The notes beneath the pieces were generated by a model, which was not told the DNA's origin, searched no databases, and saw nothing but the letters and a program-made list of their open reading frames with translations. The position numbers and the translations under genes were made by a program. A stretch of DNA of 36,138 nt, from IMG/VR virus record IMGVR_UViG_2563366848_000001, one strand, 5' to 3'. Of this stretch, positions 1,089 to 36,138 are shown one piece after another (within the stretch, counting starts at the first letter, position 1; every line of letters starts with the position of its first letter). This DNA comes from a virus. Lineage: Duplodnaviria > Heunggongvirae > Uroviricota > Caudoviricetes.

Positions 1089-1193
1089 ATGCAAAAAATC
1101 AACCAAACCAGCGCAATGCCTGAAAAAACTGACGTTCACTGGAGTGGTCGGTTTAGCGTTGCACCAATGCTCGATGGGATTTACTACAAATAA
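1089..1193 (+). pseudogene. dusA: displaced dusA 5' fragment (34 codons, MQKINQTSAMPEKTDVHWSGRFSVAPMLDG then IYYK-stop) left at attL by integration
   Basis: Translation RFSVAPMLD matches RFSIAPMLD at the N-terminus of the full dusA at 35101; reading frame runs into phage DNA and stops after 4 codons. Confidence 0.55.
1149..1180 (+). other. attL (imperfect repeat shared with attR; identical core ATGCTCGA at about 1167-1174)
   Basis: Segment aligns with 35179-35210 with an 8-bp identical core flanked by partially matching sequence; lies at the prophage/chromosome junction. Confidence 0.55.
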
Positions 1194-1247
1194 AAATCAA
1201 TAAGTTATGTTTTTCAGGGGTGCTATAGGGGTGCTGAATGGGAAGGG

Positions 1248-1499
1248 TTACTGCATTCTTTTAAGTTCTTCCTTTGCTTCCTTTCTCTTTTTGTCGATGA
1301 ACTCTGCTAGGTCGCTGACGTGAACCATTCGCGGGGATTTCTGACTATCACCAATGCGAAATGTTGGCAGAGGTAGGTCACCACATCCCGCCTTTTTATC
1401 CGCTGTGGCAGGTTTCATACCTAGATAGCGTTCCGATATGGCCGCAAGCGGAATTGTTGAGGTTTCAAACTCCGCCATTAACAAAAACATGGTATTCAT
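1248..1499 (-). CDS. PrtN-like (pyocin-activator family) small DNA-binding regulator
   Basis: 83 aa; N-terminal MNTMFLLMAEFE..IPLAAISERYLG and mid-region resemble the PrtN family from memory; start overlaps stop of upstream helicase. Confidence 0.55.
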   Translation of the reverse strand: MNTMFLLMAEFETSTIPLAAISERYLGMKPATADKKAGCGDLPLPTFRIGDSQKSPRMVHVSDLAEFIDKKRKEAKEELKRMQ

Positions 1500-2890
1500 T
1501 TCAAACCTCTCTTCTTCATGGCATCGAGCAGGATGTCCTGCACTGTTCGTTTTGAGTTACGCCGCTCCATCACCATTTCATCCATAGTGTCGGCGGCAAT
1601 AATGTGGTGAATGAACACCGGGCGGTTGTGTCCGGCCTGAATTTGCCGGGTTGGGCCGATGCGTTCGATAATTTGCTGATACTGCTCCAGATCCCACCAG
1701 TGCGAGAAAAAAACCAGTATGTTGCCGCCATCCTGCATGTTCAGGCCGTGGCCTGCGCTGGCAGGGTGCGCGAACAGGACCGGTATTTTTCCGGAGTTCC
1801 AGTCGCGCAGCGTCTGTGGATCCTGGTCGAGGTGGCGACCTTTCGGGAAAGCCTTACGCAGGCGCTCAAGGTCATGTTTCCAGTGGTAGGCCACCAGCAC
1901 CGGCGCGCCAGCTGCTTCGGTGAGTATGCTGTCCAGCGCCTGCAGCTTCGCGTCGTGCAGTTCTGACCAGCTCCCGGCGTCGTCGGTGTACACCGCGCCG
2001 CTGGCAATTTGCAGACACTTCACCGTTTTAGCCGCAGCGTTCGGCGCTTCAATGCCCTCGCCGTTGAGTTCGAGGAACATTTCCTTTTCCATTTCGCGAT
2101 ACTGCTGGCAGGCCTTCGGCGGCATGTCCACGCGGATAACGTTATGGATGGGCTCTTTGATATCGAACCAGTCGGCGGCGTCCAGGGAGATAGTGACGTC
2201 GGCCAGTGCGCGCTGTATTTCGTCCTGCGAATGGGCGAACGGCTCCAGCTTCGTCCAGCTTTGCCCCGGAAACTGTATCGAGTTAAACCAGCGGGAGGTG
2301 AACGCACCGTAAGTTCGCCCGAGGCGCTGCCCCTGATCCACAAACCACGCCTGCCCCCACAAATCCACCAGGCCGTTCGGCGCTGGCGTACCGGTGAGAT
2401 TCATCCAGCGCCGGACGTGCTTATGTGCCACTTTTCCCAGCGCCGCCGCACGCTTGCCGCCGCCGCGCAGCCGGAAGGATTTCAGCCGGGTGCTTTCGTC
2501 GGGGATAACGGTACCGAACGGCCAGCGGCCGCCCAGCTCTTCCACCAGCCAGACCAGATTGTCGTAGTTGATGGTGAACACACTGGCGTTGCTGTTCGCC
2601 AGCGCCGCGGCGCGTGCTTTGGCATTACCGACAATCGGCTGCACCTCGATATTGCGCAGATGCCCCCATTTCACCGCTTCATCCGGCCAGGTGCTGGCAG
2701 CCACACGCAGCGGCGCGAGAACCAGCGCGGGCTGAGTCTCCGCTCCCGCCATAAAGAGATCTTCCAGCGTGGTGAGCGTCGCCACGGTTTTACCCATGCC
2801 CATGCCCGCCCAGATGTTGCAGCGATGAATGTCGATTTCGTGGTTGATGATGAGGTCCTGATAGGGGCGGGGGGTAAATACTGAGCTCAC
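1496..2890 (-). CDS. SNF2-family DEAD/DEAH-box helicase
   Basis: 464 aa; Walker A GMGMGKT near N-terminus, DExx-like IPDES, C-terminal helicase domain; ATGA overlap with VRR-NUC gene. Confidence 0.85.
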   Translation of the reverse strand: MSSVFTPRPYQDLIINHEIDIHRCNIWAGMGMGKTVATLTTLEDLFMAGAETQPALVLAPLRVAASTWPDEAVKWGHLRNIEVQPIVGNAKARAAALANSNASVFTINYDNLVWLVEELGGRWPFGTVIPDESTRLKSFRLRGGGKRAAALGKVAHKHVRRWMNLTGTPAPNGLVDLWGQAWFVDQGQRLGRTYGAFTSRWFNSIQFPGQSWTKLEPFAHSQDEIQRALADVTISLDAADWFDIKEPIHNVIRVDMPPKACQQYREMEKEMFLELNGEGIEAPNAAAKTVKCLQIASGAVYTDDAGSWSELHDAKLQALDSILTEAAGAPVLVAYHWKHDLERLRKAFPKGRHLDQDPQTLRDWNSGKIPVLFAHPASAGHGLNMQDGGNILVFFSHWWDLEQYQQIIERIGPTRQIQAGHNRPVFIHHIIAADTMDEMVMERRNSKRTVQDILLDAMKKRGLK

Positions 2891-33839: not shown

Positions 33840-33936
33840 AGATCTGCAGGCTGATATAGAAACTGCTGAATGTCTGCGCCAGCTGCGGCAGGATAAGTAT
33901 CGCTGGCAGGCGTGGTATAAAGCTACTTCTTTTTAG
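33691..33936 (+). CDS. Rz1-like o-spanin (lipoprotein) partly nested in Rz in another frame
   Basis: 81 aa; signal peptide with lipobox-like ILTITLCSC; Pro-rich mature region; overlaps Rz 3' end and the integrase 3' end. Confidence 0.5.
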   Translation: MLTTRIILSAILTITLCSCVSAPSMRPTPSADLMQEPCKGASKAGTDSDEDLQADIETAECLRQLRQDKYRWQAWYKATSF

Positions 33937-35011
33937 CGTGCAGCGCGTCGTACTTTTCATGCAGGGATTTCGGAAACAGTTCAGTATAAACCTGCCAGAG
34001 TACATTAAGAGACCGATGGCCTGTAACCTGGGCCACTTCTTCTATACTAAAACCCGCCTCAAAAAGCCTGCTGGCCCCCTCCCGGCGCATATCGTGGTAG
34101 CGCAAGTCTTCAATGCCCAGGGCGTTCCTGACACGTTGAAAACCCGCAGTTACAGAACGAGAGTTATAAGGGAAAATTAACTCGCTGATTTTGGGCTGAC
34201 GTTGCACTATGTTCCAGGCATCGCCGAGAAGTGGTACCAGCATATGGTTACCGGATTTTTTGCGCGGGTCTTTTCTGTCTCTGACCAGCACGGCCTTTTG
34301 TTTTTCGTCTACATCTTCCCAGCGGATTTTGCACACTTCGCCAACTCGCATACAACTGAGGATTGAGAAGTTAAGAATATCAACGAAGGGGATTTTTGCT
34401 GCGACGTGATCGCTTCTGGCCTCAAGCCCTGCGAGCAGTCTATCCAGTTCGTCGCTCACAGGGCGGCGGCTGCGGCGTTTGGATTTGCCAATCAGCCCCA
34501 TCTGGAGCAGTAGAGGTCTTGCATCTGTTGCGGGATTGGTCGTGTAGTCGATACCGTAGACGGGTTTGGCGGACGCCAGAACGGAAGAAAGGTAACTTAC
34601 ATCGTGGTTAATAGTAGAAGGACCGGCACCAGCGCCGTTTCTGTGGCGGCAATGCTCGATAACGTGGCTGGTTGAAAGGTCTGTCAGAGGGGTTTCGGCG
34701 ATGTTGCAGTCCAGCAACATATCCAGTACATAACGTTTTGTGCGCCCGGCTTTGCCGCCGAGGTTGGGATCGTTGATATAGCGTTTGAGCAGATCGCCAA
34801 CAACCATTTTGTTTAAGTCGTTGGTGGTCGGCACCCCATTTGTTTCCAGTTCAGCAACCCTACCAGCACCCCACGTTTTGGCATGGGCCTGTTTGCTGAA
34901 TGTTCGGTTTTCCCGGTAGATATATTTCCCACCTTCTTTTACGCCCACGGTGCAGCGGTAGCGTAAAGTCCCATCGGCGCGTTGACGTTTTTCTATGCTA
35001 TAGTAGGCCAT
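33923..35011 (-). CDS. int: tyrosine integrase (dusA-associated type)
   Basis: 362 aa; C-terminal catalytic region with HDMRR and HRS..Y motifs; adjacent and divergent to dusA 5' end. Confidence 0.9.
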   Translation of the reverse strand: MAYYSIEKRQRADGTLRYRCTVGVKEGGKYIYRENRTFSKQAHAKTWGAGRVAELETNGVPTTNDLNKMVVGDLLKRYINDPNLGGKAGRTKRYVLDMLLDCNIAETPLTDLSTSHVIEHCRHRNGAGAGPSTINHDVSYLSSVLASAKPVYGIDYTTNPATDARPLLLQMGLIGKSKRRSRRPVSDELDRLLAGLEARSDHVAAKIPFVDILNFSILSCMRVGEVCKIRWEDVDEKQKAVLVRDRKDPRKKSGNHMLVPLLGDAWNIVQRQPKISELIFPYNSRSVTAGFQRVRNALGIEDLRYHDMRREGASRLFEAGFSIEEVAQVTGHRSLNVLWQVYTELFPKSLHEKYDALHAKKK

Positions 35012-35100
35012 GCTTTTCCTTTACCTTCGTTCAGCACCCCATGAATCTGGGGTGCTGTTGGGGGTGCTGATAAAGAAAAAATACGACATAAAGACAAAAA

Positions 35101-36138
35101 ATGCACGAAAATAAAGAATCGCACAACCCACACCAGAACAGCGTTAACAGAGGAAAAACGCCGGGATACAGCCCTTCACGTTTTTCCATCGCGCCGATGC
35201 TCGACTGGACGGACAGACATTGCCGCTATTTCTTGCGTCTGCTTTCCCGCAATACGTTGCTGTATACTGAAATGGTAACTACAGGGGCGATTATTCACGG
35301 TAAAGGTGATTACCTGGCGTATAGTGAAGAAGAACATCCGGTAGCGTTGCAACTCGGCGGTAGCGATCCGGCGGCGCTGGCGCAGTGTGCGAAGCTGGCA
35401 GAAGCGCGTGGATATGATGAGATCAACCTGAATGTCGGCTGCCCGTCTGACCGGGTGCAGAACGGCATGTTTGGTGCGTGTCTGATGGGTAATGCGCAGC
35501 TGGTTGCCGACTGCGTGAAAGCGATGCGCGATGTGGTGTCGATTCCGGTGACGGTGAAAACGCGTATTGGCATCGACGACCAGGACAGCTATGAATTTCT
35601 CTGCGATTTCATCAACACCGTTTCCGGCAAAGGCGAGTGTGAGATGTTCATCATCCATGCACGTAAAGCCTGGCTTTCGGGGTTAAGTCCGAAAGAAAAC
35701 CGTGAGATCCCGCCGCTCGATTATCCGCGTGTGTATCAACTGAAGCGTGACTTTCCGCATCTGACAATGTCGATTAACGGTGGTATCAAGTCGCTGGAAG
35801 AGGCCAAAGCACACCTGCAACATATGGATGGCGTGATGGTCGGGCGCGAGGCGTATCAGAATCCGGGTATTCTGGCGGCGGTAGACCGGGAGATCTTTGG
35901 TTCCTCGGATATCGATGCCGATCCGGTGGCGGTAGTGCGCGCCATGTATCCGTACATTGAGCGTGAACTCAGCCAGGGGACGTATCTCGGTCATATTACC
36001 CGGCATATGTTGGGCTTGTTCCAGGGTATTCCTGGCGCGCGGCAGTGGCGGCGTTATTTAAGTGAAAATGCCCATAAAGCGGGTGCAGACATTAATGTGC
36101 TGGAACACGCGCTCAAACTGGTGGCGGATAAGCGTTAA
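35101..36138 (+). CDS. dusA: tRNA-dihydrouridine(20/20a) synthase DusA
   Basis: 345 aa; recognised as DusA from overall sequence ([20 protein letters not shown]-binding Dus fold); first ~30 codons lie on the phage side of attR. Confidence 0.9.
35179..35210 (+). other. attR (inside dusA 5' coding region; core ATGCTCGA at about 35197-35204)
   Basis: Aligns with attL segment at 1149-1180 with an identical 8-bp core. Confidence 0.55.

Follow-up and report, generated by a model that had tools for sequence, protein, structure and literature searches.

Does a prophage whose virion genes stand in the order of those of phage T7, and which encodes no single-subunit RNA polymerase, represent an unusual offshoot of T7, and how would its late genes be transcribed? 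The question is raised by the 36,138-nucleotide IMG/VR virus record IMGVR_UViG_2563366848_000001 (the window, meaning the whole stretch analyzed), most of which is occupied by a prophage in the 5' end of the Escherichia coli gene dusA. It is quite probably an apparently intact, 34.0-kb temperate podovirus prophage related to Yersinia phage YeP4, with late promoters read by the host polymerase and a 91-amino-acid (aa) helix-turn-helix (HTH) protein, HTH91, encoded ahead of them. The late promoter set with its candidate activator appears to be the only truly new part, absent from the literature searched; a search for the promoter motif sequence found no paper. We infer promoter activity, the role of HTH91, and the inducibility of this prophage from its sequence.

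Five predicted late promoters with a shared 15-bp motif

Repeat finding in the window gave a motif, GTCGGGATTCCGACC, that is present in five same-strand copies, one with a single mismatch, at 13214, 16675, 26900, 28832, and 32642. Scanning both strands at up to 3 mismatches yielded 9 matches where 0.76 would be expected, a number that no shuffle out of 100 attained. The motif is a 15-bp quasi-palindrome with the pattern GTCRGGAWWCYGAMC, and its copies precede the block of a 139-aa open reading frame (ORF) and the portal gene, the capsid gene, the terminase genes, the fibre gene, and the lysis cassette:

13214 to 13246, plus strand: predicted late promoter 1, with motif GTCGGGATTCCGACC at 13214-13228, -10 element CACACT at 13241-13246, and a predicted start at about 13253
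16675 to 16707, plus strand: predicted late promoter 2, before the capsid gene, with its motif at 16675-16689 and -10 element AACAAT at 16702-16707
26900 to 26961, plus strand: predicted late promoter 3, with its motif at 26900-26914, -10 element CACCAT at 26927-26932, and a predicted start at about 26939
28832 to 28864, plus strand: predicted late promoter 4, within the 3' end of the large-terminase coding sequence, with its motif at 28832-28846 and -10 element GAACAT at 28859-28864
32642 to 32674, plus strand: predicted late promoter 5, before the lysis cassette, with motif GTCAGGATTCCGACC at 32642-32656 and -10 element TACCCT at 32669-32674

The motif is widely kept at the same places. Among 47 genomic loci fetched because they encode relatives of the capsid protein, and scanned for GTCRGGAWWCYGAMC at no more than 1 mismatch, it is present in 24, which together with the window hold 63 occurrences, 58 of them unique; all 58 lie on the late strand and at syntenic positions. 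The hosts span Enterobacterales, several genera of Burkholderiales, and Pseudomonas, with capsid identity to the window as low as 42-49%, and the motif is absent from the Acinetobacter and Orbaceae loci in this set. YeP4 has copies of the GTCGGGAAACCGAAC type at all five syntenic places, and all five are also present in a prophage with a lambdoid backbone, L002, in E. coli 23GD11002. Neither motif nor HTH91 was found when both were looked for in phages phiV10, BMP-1, HTVC010P, Piluca, T7, and P22. In IMG/VR there are at least 120 stretches with the exact 15-mer (L057 to L176), mostly from contigs of 34-38 kb, and spacings of 1932 and about 3450 nt between motif copies recur in the stretches listed; these matches suggest a large uncharacterised clade with the same predicted regulon.

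A -10-like hexamer, nAnMMT, is located exactly 12 nt 3' of the motif. In the 58 unique instances the A at hexamer position 2 (+14) is present in 54 and the T at position 6 (+18) in 53, and C/A enrichment is seen 6-7 nt beyond the hexamer. An independent set from IMG/VR behaves alike, with A in 100 and T in 99 of 111 unique instances among the matches listed, against backgrounds of 24% and 18%, respectively. An A at -11 and a T at -7 are the hallmark of the -10 element of sigma70-family promoters; with a -10 of this type at a fixed spacing, the motif occupies -39 to -25, centred at about -32, so that the -35 hexamer is replaced. A consensus promoter scan of the window did not report the late motif sites. 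The five sites are apparently late promoters, from which host polymerase of the sigma70 type would transcribe the late genes, and the claim of an earlier note on this DNA, that these genes must be read by the host enzyme, is thus backed by five conserved elements with a sigma70-type -10 and predicted promoter activity. The copy at promoter 4 encodes VGIPT in the terminase (VGKPN in YeP4), and the terminase C-terminus and the promoter co-evolve.

HTH91, a candidate late activator

A candidate for the protein that acts on the motif is encoded just ahead of the late region:

12724 to 12999, plus strand: HTH91, a 91-aa XRE-fold HTH protein and candidate late-gene activator, between the probable replication origin and the first late promoter

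In 22 of the 23 loci examined, a homologue of HTH91 is encoded 20-400 nt 5' of where the motif first occurs, and the HTH91 gene is kept with the late cassette on all three backbones compared, those of the window, YeP4, and lambdoid L002. Furthermore, the palindrome falls into three classes that pair with three types of recognition helix, all with the -10 spacing preserved. The palindrome GTCGG...CCGAC is paired with the helix xK(S/T)xxxG(W/Y)K, GGCGGGATTCCGCC (two Roseateles loci) with GRKTITDYAR, and TCAGGAAYCTGA (a Rubrivivax locus) with GRTEGWVWNLK. The AlphaFold2 (AF2) model of HTH91 has a pLDDT of 87 and is a four-helix XRE-type bundle with two flanking strands, for which the best Foldseek matches are controller proteins (C-proteins) of restriction-modification (R-M) systems, SinR, HipB, and P22 c2. 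By sequence the protein is obscure: a homologue search found only 20 close proteins, all unnamed; Pfam gave sub-threshold HTH_23 and HTH_11 matches only, and neither the Mor/C nor the Ogr_Delta family; no NCBIfam family matched; and nothing significant was found among PDB chains.

Together these observations make it slightly better than an even bet that HTH91 is the late activator, acting like Mu C, P2 Ogr, PhoB, or C-proteins; probably as a dimer, it would bind the palindrome and recruit polymerase. Two other sets of candidates were rejected. The two ORFs that open the late region, of 139 and 76 aa, have no DNA-binding features and both lie 3' of the first promoter, and for the PerC/ANR-like and PrtN-like proteins of the window no homologue was detected with the late cassette on the lambdoid backbone, which keeps the motif.

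Several points weigh against HTH91 as the activator. Its fold matches are weak (E of about 0.03 and TM of about 0.5), and the link between protein and motif is a correlation drawn from about three palindrome classes. The palindrome is itself imperfect, with G1/A14 and A4/C11 combinations common, and at promoter 4, where the copy is inside a coding sequence, part of the conservation may reflect protein constraint. A site centred at about -32 is at the usual position of sigma region 4 and atypical for an XRE-type activator, and HTH91 would need to contact sigma region 4 or displace it. The exception among the 23 loci is L038, from a Hydrogenophaga metagenome-assembled genome, which has three exact copies of the YeP4-type motif (at 6352, 9808, and 18586) and no HTH91 homologue detected upstream of the motif; it is either a true exception to the co-occurrence or a case of a very divergent or relocated regulator.

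In the best-surviving alternative the sites do act as promoters, but what reads them is a host factor, such as an ECF-like sigma (extracytoplasmic function) with GGAAAC/GGATTC as its -35 element, or another phage protein. The motif is nearly unchanged from Enterobacterales to Burkholderiales, as could also be expected if a host factor conserved among such dissimilar hosts were to read it; ECF sigmas typically recognize -35 elements resembling GGAAC, the motif centre at -32 falls where sigma region 4 binds, and L038 has the motif with no HTH91 homologue detected. However, the -10 hexamer carries the sigma70 signature, A-11 and T-7, and not an ECF -10; HTH91 has accompanied the late module to a lambdoid backbone that is unrelated; phiV10, BMP-1, HTVC010P, and Piluca, which lack the motif, also lack HTH91; and variants of the palindrome coincide with changed recognition helices. 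A reader other than HTH91 is judged unlikely, though not negligibly so. With HTH91 as the preferred activator, it is conceivable, at somewhat less than an even chance, that protein and palindrome form a previously undescribed late-transcription system, in which an XRE-fold protein at the -35 position of five promoters redirects sigma70 polymerase, maybe displacing or bridging sigma region 4 in the manner of MotA/AsiA, in podovirus genomes of about 35 kb that number in the hundreds and range from Enterobacterales to Burkholderiales.

The late cassette on different backbones

L002 (NZ_CM180093.1, 4204-39130) has the same late cassette as the window at 83% nucleotide identity, including HTH91 and the five promoters, on a lambdoid backbone with RepO, DnaB-type replication genes, a different integrase, and insertion next to tRNA-Leu/yecA; its early region has an ISEc20 insertion. 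YeP4 shares both the early and the late modules of the window and has another integrase. No matches to dusA or the integrase were found in the 20-kb loci of the relatives, which stop short of the prophage ends. The late cassette, with its candidate regulator and promoters, thus moves as a unit between unrelated temperate backbones, of the BPP-1 type here and lambdoid in 23GD11002, and illustrates clearly how phages evolve by modules. The switching-on of late genes in polymerase-less relatives of T7 is essentially unstudied, and this clade offers a clean system in tractable E. coli, with one small candidate activator and a 15-bp site at five syntenic promoters, conserved across bacterial orders.

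Precise insertion in dusA and integrity of the prophage

The element is delimited by an 8-bp direct repeat, ATGCTCGA, at 1167-1174 and 35197-35204, the outer edges of which (1167 and 35204) are its limits. Four features define the junctions:

1071 to 1174, plus strand: native dusA 5' end, now displaced, with the attL core ATGCTCGA (1167-1174) at its close, from sequence reading and the attB match to intact dusA
1248 to 1499, minus strand: PrtN-like small DNA-binding protein, a probable excisionase or recombination directionality factor (PF11112, 91 bits; phrog_1300, excisionase)
33923 to 35011, minus strand: tyrosine integrase targeting dusA (PF00589), adjoining the dusA junction
35101 to 36138, plus strand: hybrid dusA (PF01207), consisting of a prophage-supplied 5' end (35101-35196), the attR core (35197-35204), and then the host gene

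Joining the left flank up to 1174 with the right flank from 35205 rebuilds an attB region of 600 nt, which an uninterrupted dusA matches at 100% identity in many genomes of E. coli; the insertion inside the 5' end of dusA is therefore precise and the prophage between the repeats is 34.0 kb long, as the earlier note had placed it, with a tyrosine integrase at the junction. The rebuilt region is contiguous over at least 80% of its length in 3638 of 5426 complete E. coli genomes. About a third of complete E. coli genomes may bear some element at dusA, or an upstream variant, and in one of the top attB matches an IS1 element is present at the dusA 5' region. The native dusA ATG at 1071 and the first 32 codons are left stranded at the left junction, and the prophage supplies a new in-frame start, ATG at 35101, that leaves an intact hybrid ORF, so that the N-terminus of DusA is rewritten by the prophage. 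The integrase, in which the catalytic residues R...HxxR...H...Y are kept, is separated from the new ATG by a gap of 90 nt; it would be dusA-specific, inserting at the 8-bp core and swapping the first 32 dusA codons for the prophage's own. G+C content is 55-61% within the element and 36% in the left flank, where the flanking gene (1-708) is an E. coli yjbM-type gene with DUF2713. No tRNA or tmRNA gene was found in the window, the junction included.

A 2015 study by Farrugia et al. (PMC4482086) already described dusA-integrated prophages and found that about half of dusA islands are prophages and that 64% of the islands have a prtN homologue (PMC4482086). By gene position and insertion pattern the window element is a dusA-associated integrase (DAI) element: its integrase abuts dusA, the insertion is at the 5' end, a replacement 5' end is supplied, and a prtN homologue is at the far end (PMC4482086). 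DAI elements are flanked by imperfect direct repeats, with a semi-conserved att sequence of 21 bp (PMC4482086), and the window shows an exact 8-bp core with imperfect flanks. Farrugia et al. list E. coli cases but not a podovirus of this type (PMC4482086). Insertion in dusA is a known integrase habit, to which the window adds another example.

A cryptic or defective state, in which the prophage would have lost excision and particle formation, is improbable. Elements of this kind are rare, with the virion module and the integrase each found in 3 of the 5426 complete E. coli genomes, and a same-site relative in strain CAVP773 is a remnant riddled with insertion sequences (IS). In the window, however, all modules are complete with uninterrupted ORFs, both att cores are intact, the rebuilt attB is perfect, the integrase catalytic residues and the S24 autocleavage domain of CI are present, and the five late promoters and the candidate activator gene are intact. 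YeP4, YeP5, and YeP6, which have the same architecture, are inducible (PMC6548840). The CAVP773 relative (NZ_CM176349.1, about 10900-21100) is a decayed copy of the window type at dusA, interrupted by IS5, IS3, and IS4; it keeps the integrase (96% nucleotide identity), lysis genes, and a helicase fragment and is one of the three integrase carriers.

Relationship of the virion module to T7

The virion genes are organized as follows:

13277 to 13939, plus strand: two small conserved late proteins, of 139 aa (13277-13696) and 76 aa (13709-13939), kept in relatives (phrog_17476 and phrog_9015)
13943 to 15568, plus strand: portal (PF12236, 402 bits)
15565 to 15798, plus strand: Bbp19-like protein (profile match)
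15785 to 16621, plus strand: scaffold (profile match)
16758 to 17750, plus strand: major capsid protein (PF19821, 230 bits; phrog_3437), with its true start probably downstream of the listed GTG
17808 to 18371, plus strand: tail tubular A (profile match)
18310 to 20361, plus strand: tail tubular B (profile match)
20324 to 20812, plus strand: GNAT acetyltransferase, between tail tubular B and the internal virion proteins
20815 to 21282, plus strand: internal virion protein (IVP) B-like (profile match)
21285 to 23993, plus strand: IVP-C-like, with an SLT domain (profile match)
23993 to 26896, plus strand: IVP-D-like (profile match)
26961 to 27302, plus strand: small terminase (phrog_9277)
27299 to 28909, plus strand: large terminase of the T7 type (phrog_38, PF22530)
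28931 to 31432, plus strand: tail fibre or spike, with a T7 gp17-type N-terminal adaptor and a C-terminal S74 chaperone domain (PF03906)

This is the T7 layout of portal, scaffold, capsid, tubular proteins A and B, internal virion proteins, terminase, and fibre that the earlier note had described, and the proteins belong to T7-type Pfam families (PF12236, the nozzle family PF25675, PF03906, and PF22530), with further virion matches to phrog_394, 376, 418, 1044, and 342. P22-like or siphovirus structural families, which would have spoken against a T7-like virion, were not what protein searches returned: the families are of the T7 type, and none of 18 proteins matches P22 in pairwise comparison at E of 0.01 or less. 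The absence of a single-subunit RNA polymerase also holds: there is no polymerase match in Pfam (PF00940-type included) in any scanned ORF, among them two internal virion proteins of more than 900 aa, and a tblastn search of the window with T7 RNA polymerase as the query gave no match at E of 10 or less. A hidden polymerase was dropped as a candidate because both the Pfam scan of all large ORFs and the tblastn search were empty.

The direct relationship with T7 is narrower than the layout implies. The large terminase matches 2267 phage records, mostly Autographiviridae and including T7 itself, but in pairwise tblastn against T7 it is the only protein to match, with 31% identity to gp19 over 195 aa (E = 1e-19). 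The portal matches Autographiviridae weakly (E of 1e-6 to 1e-9), compared with 1e-40 to 1e-77 for BPP-1, phiV10, and HTVC010P, and the portal, tail tubes, fibre N-terminus, and capsid match these three phages, although not every protein matches each phage. Against phiV10, which is epsilon15-like, the portal is 26% identical (1e-39), tail tube B 38% (1e-46), and the fibre N-terminus 39%; against BMP-1, of the BPP-1 group, the portal is 29% (6e-50) and tail tube B 30% (1e-84) identical; and against HTVC010P the portal matches at 7e-77 and the capsid at 2e-26. Capsid relatives in the phage collection include YeP4-6, Acinetobacter phages, the Alcaligenes phage Piluca, HTVC010P-type pelagiphages, VP2/VP5-type vibriophages, and Liberibacter SC1-type phages. 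BPP-1, phiV10, and HTVC010P all lack a polymerase, and the BPP-1 and epsilon15 groups are temperate.

Hardies et al. place epsilon15, BPP-1, BcepC6B, VP5, and SC1 in an epsilon15 subgroup that is sister to a T7 subgroup, the latter so far coinciding with the polymerase-defined Autographivirinae (PMC4819975). With tubular tail proteins A and B, internal virion proteins, and a T7-family portal, the window virion module appears from its protein matches to belong to the T7 supergroup, and it is closest pairwise to the assemblage of BPP-1, epsilon15, and HTVC010P; BLAST ranking favours placement with epsilon15, BPP-1, VP5, and SC1 over T7, whereas the large terminase is of the T7 type, unlike that of epsilon15. 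By the same comparisons it is outside the Autographiviridae in the strict sense, having no single-subunit polymerase and no direct virion similarity beyond the large terminase.

The label T7-like is thus sound for layout, protein families, large terminase, and fibre N-terminus, and fails for the nearest pairwise kin, which are polymerase-less temperate podoviruses. The further idea that the element is an exceptional mosaic, derived from a phage of the Autographiviridae lineage that lost its polymerase and gained lysogeny and foreign replication genes, draws on the T7-like gene order, the four Pfam families, and the grouping of the large terminase with Autographiviridae, and is very improbable. 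The other virion proteins match polymerase-less BPP-1, phiV10, and HTVC010P; the replication module, which the earlier note had rightly seen as foreign to T7, is that of BPP-1, with identities of 45-67% (against BMP-1, 67% for the family A DNA polymerase PolA, 67% for the single-stranded-DNA-binding protein [SSB], 66% for the SNF2 helicase, and 45% for the exonuclease); and phages of this kind are already in the epsilon15 subgroup of Hardies et al. (PMC4819975). YeP4-6 share the architecture as well. As far as these comparisons go, a temperate, polymerase-less state is normal for the lineage and the mosaic is ordinary, and the view of it as unusual for a podovirus does not stand.

Terminators and predicted late transcription units

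Hairpins are placed at several of the predicted late promoters:

About 16644 to 16670, plus strand: hairpin and T-run before promoter 2
17766 to 17794, plus strand: strong intrinsic terminator just after the capsid gene, with 7 G-C pairs and then a T-run, in the same relative place as T-phi in T7
26933 to 26955, plus strand: terminator hairpin directly after the promoter 3 -10 element, with the predicted start (about 26939) inside the hairpin

There is also a terminator-like hairpin between the HTH91 gene and the first motif copy. The promoter 3 hairpin is kept in YeP4 and L002 with changed stem sequences; it would stop read-through from upstream, and transcripts begun at about 26939 would lack its 5' arm and escape. 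This overlap of promoter and hairpin looks like a nested terminator-promoter insulator. With terminators before and after the capsid gene and over promoter 3, the late region would be split into units. In T7 the capsid gene has its own promoter and terminator and one short promoter sequence is reused; by analogy, the multi-promoter late layout here resembles that of T7 without its polymerase.

That the motif is itself an RNA hairpin for processing, stability, or antitermination, and not a promoter element in DNA, is the least probable of the readings considered: the window motif can fold into a tetraloop hairpin with a 6-bp stem, its symmetry survives two double changes (T2/A13 to G2/C13 and G4/C11 to A4/T11), and internal copies would be in read-through transcripts, but an A...T hexamer lies strictly 12 nt downstream in about 90% of 169 unique instances (the IMG/VR part of these being among the matches listed), a spacing for which an RNA hairpin would have no need, pairs that break the stem are frequent (G1/A14 throughout the YeP4 type, and A4/C11 at the holin and small-terminase [TerS] genes), copy 1 comes after the terminator-like hairpin that lies behind the HTH91 gene and copy 2 is directly preceded by a hairpin and T-run, and an Rfam scan matched no known RNA family.

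Immunity and early operons

The CI/Cro switch described in the earlier note is present, in a region with the following features:

9133 to 9161, minus strand: candidate early-left promoter, TTTACA-17-TAGATT, overlapped by an operator-like inverted repeat at 9136-9153 (promoter and repeat scans)
9286 to 9960, minus strand: CI-type repressor with an HTH_3 domain and a LexA-like S24 autocleavage domain (domain matches)
9955 to 10017, no strand assigned: right operator region between cI and cro, with two ATACAA-N6-TTGTAT inverted repeats at 9955-9972 and 10000-10017 (repeat search)
10012 to 10242, plus strand: Cro-like HTH protein (domain and phrog matches)

Operator-like repeats of the ATACAA-N6-TTGTAT type number only three, at 9136, 9955, and 10000. 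The divergent genes, the operators at both early promoters, and the S24-bearing repressor, with its predicted cleavage, have the hallmarks of lambda-type immunity, in which CI and Cro would act through these operators. An 885-bp stretch (8401-9286) that separates the candidate early-left promoter from the first of the large early genes has only a 68-aa ORF (8677-8883, minus strand; phrog_20712) and a minus-strand terminator at 8658-8639; no Rfam, Pfam, or PADLOC match was found in it, and PADLOC found no defence genes among the unassigned ORFs.

The early operons and probable origin are organized as follows:

1496 to 8401, minus strand: early-left operon, a BPP-1-type replication and recombination module (profile matches; 45-67% identity to BMP-1), with the seven genes below
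1496 to 2890, minus strand: SNF2 helicase
2887 to 3252, minus strand: VRR-NUC-like nuclease
3245 to 3505, minus strand: ANR/PerC-like small regulator (ANR NF033650, 72 bits against a cutoff of 32; the PerC match is weak)
3465 to 5735, minus strand: PolA
5608 to 6156, minus strand: Enc34/gp2.5-like SSB
6171 to 7475, minus strand: DUF2800 PD-(D/E)XK exonuclease
7478 to 8401, minus strand: 307-aa protein without a named function
10246 to 12423, plus strand: primase fused to a VapE/D5-type helicase, in the early-right operon (PF05272, 204 bits; phrog_256 and phrog_1156)
12420 to 12589, no strand assigned: probable replication origin just 3' of the primase-helicase gene, with six GGTGGTCTAG iterons in both orientations around an (AT)n tract, ATATATATATATA

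Parts of the early-left operon are about 81% nucleotide identical to E. coli phages vB_EcoM-606R2 and relatives. The prophage-borne ANR protein (3245-3505), of a family of negative regulators of AraC, could affect host virulence regulons. Six of the GGTGGTCTAG iterons are clustered, and the total of 8 matches was reached in none of 100 shuffles; from this arrangement the cluster at 12420-12589 is probably the replication origin.

Acetyltransferase, lysis, and cargo genes

The GNAT gene in the virion region (20324-20812) occupies the slot of T7 gp13 and is kept in nearly all relatives, and a GNAT is annotated beside tail tube B in pelagiphages. The GNAT protein Rac of phiKMV-like phages triggers cleavage of the alpha subunit of the host RNA polymerase (PMC7552054), and a Rac-like activity would be odd for a phage relying on the host polymerase. 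The remaining genes lie between the fibre gene and the integrase:

31494 to 32600, plus strand (unit 31436-32600): acyltransferase-3 gene of low G+C content (about 40%), with its own sigma70-like promoter, TTGATT-16-TATGAT, at 31436-31463
32712 to 32948, plus strand: P21-type holin, first gene of a lysis cassette at 32712-33839
32929 to 33459, plus strand: lysozyme of the lysis cassette
33438 to 33839, plus strand: Rz-like spanin of the lysis cassette

By analogy the acyltransferase is probably an O-antigen acetylation moron, through which the prophage probably alters the host O-antigen; a role in superinfection exclusion is likely too, as for oac of phiV10.

Comparison with known systems

The nearest relatives are the Yersinia phages YeP4, YeP5, and YeP6 (MK733262-4), which are about 35 kb in size and collinear in gene order throughout. 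YeP4 is 58-81% identical in amino acid sequence over 15 of the 18 proteins compared, with 64-81% for the virion genes from portal to IVP-B and the terminases, 58-74% for the replication proteins, and 55% for the fibre N-terminus, and with IVP-C and IVP-D poorly matched or unmatched; across YeP4-6 the identities are 81-82% for the capsid, 79% for the portal, 77% for the large terminase, 72% for PolA, and 71% for the primase-helicase. These phages were induced with mitomycin C, form turbid plaques, and have podovirus morphology by electron microscopy (PMC6548840, PMC9224151). They share the five late motif positions and the HTH91 homologue, but differ in the integrase (for which there is no match) and an integration site other than dusA, in the motif variant GTCGGGAAACCGAAC, in the divergence of IVP-C, IVP-D, and the fibre C-terminus, and in having no acyltransferase moron. 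Their published description does not discuss the relationship to T7 or late regulation (Liang et al. 2019, PMC6548840). On these protein comparisons the window element is a new E. coli member of the little-studied YeP4-like clade of temperate podoviruses, and as a prophage it is ordinary, an intact member in E. coli of a clade known from Yersinia.

The Bordetella phages BPP-1, BMP-1, and BIP-1 (Rauchvirus) are likewise temperate podoviruses without an RNA polymerase, and have in common with the window element the replication module, the portal, tail tube B, and, directly behind the portal gene, a Bbp19-like gene. However, their capsid and large terminase have no match by BLAST, they have neither HTH91 nor the motif, and the diversity-generating retroelement of BPP-1 is absent from the window element. 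The Epsilon15-like phages (Uetakevirus; phiV10 and epsilon15) are temperate enterobacterial podoviruses without an RNA polymerase, with homologues of the portal, both tail tubes (A and B), an internal virion protein, and the N-terminal adaptor of the fibre; phiV10 also has an O-antigen acetyltransferase gene, oac, beside the fibre gene and a PerC-like gene in the early-left operon. They differ in a P1 PacB-like terminase at the start of the late operon, a capsid that is not detectably similar, lambdoid replication, a P4-type integrase with a target other than dusA, and the absence of HTH91 and the motif.

For late control the closest parallels are Mu C/Mor, P2 Ogr and P4 Delta, and, among activators that take the place of a -35 element, PhoB and the R-M C-proteins. 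In Mu and P2/P4 a small phage DNA-binding protein is encoded ahead of the late genes, as HTH91 is here, and activator-dependent phage late promoters likewise number four or five, have no -35 element, and carry a partly symmetric conserved site before a weak -10; the C-proteins are closest to the predicted HTH91 fold. Activator sites are centred at about -43 for Mu C and -55 for Ogr, whereas the centre in the window, at about -32, is nearer to the -10 element.

T7 and other Autographiviridae differ from the window element in that the latter is temperate and polymerase-less, has a primase-helicase and exonuclease of other families, and has predicted late promoters with a sigma70-type -10. They share the gene order from portal to internal virion proteins, the T7-type large terminase, and the gp17-type fibre N-terminus, and, with T7, a capsid gene bracketed by promoter and terminator and a short conserved sequence that marks several late promoters. 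If the late promoters and their candidate activator are as proposed, the T7-style architecture of many identical late promoters with a bracketed capsid gene exists in polymerase-less relatives, and this would bear on how the Autographiviridae gained a polymerase-driven late programme.

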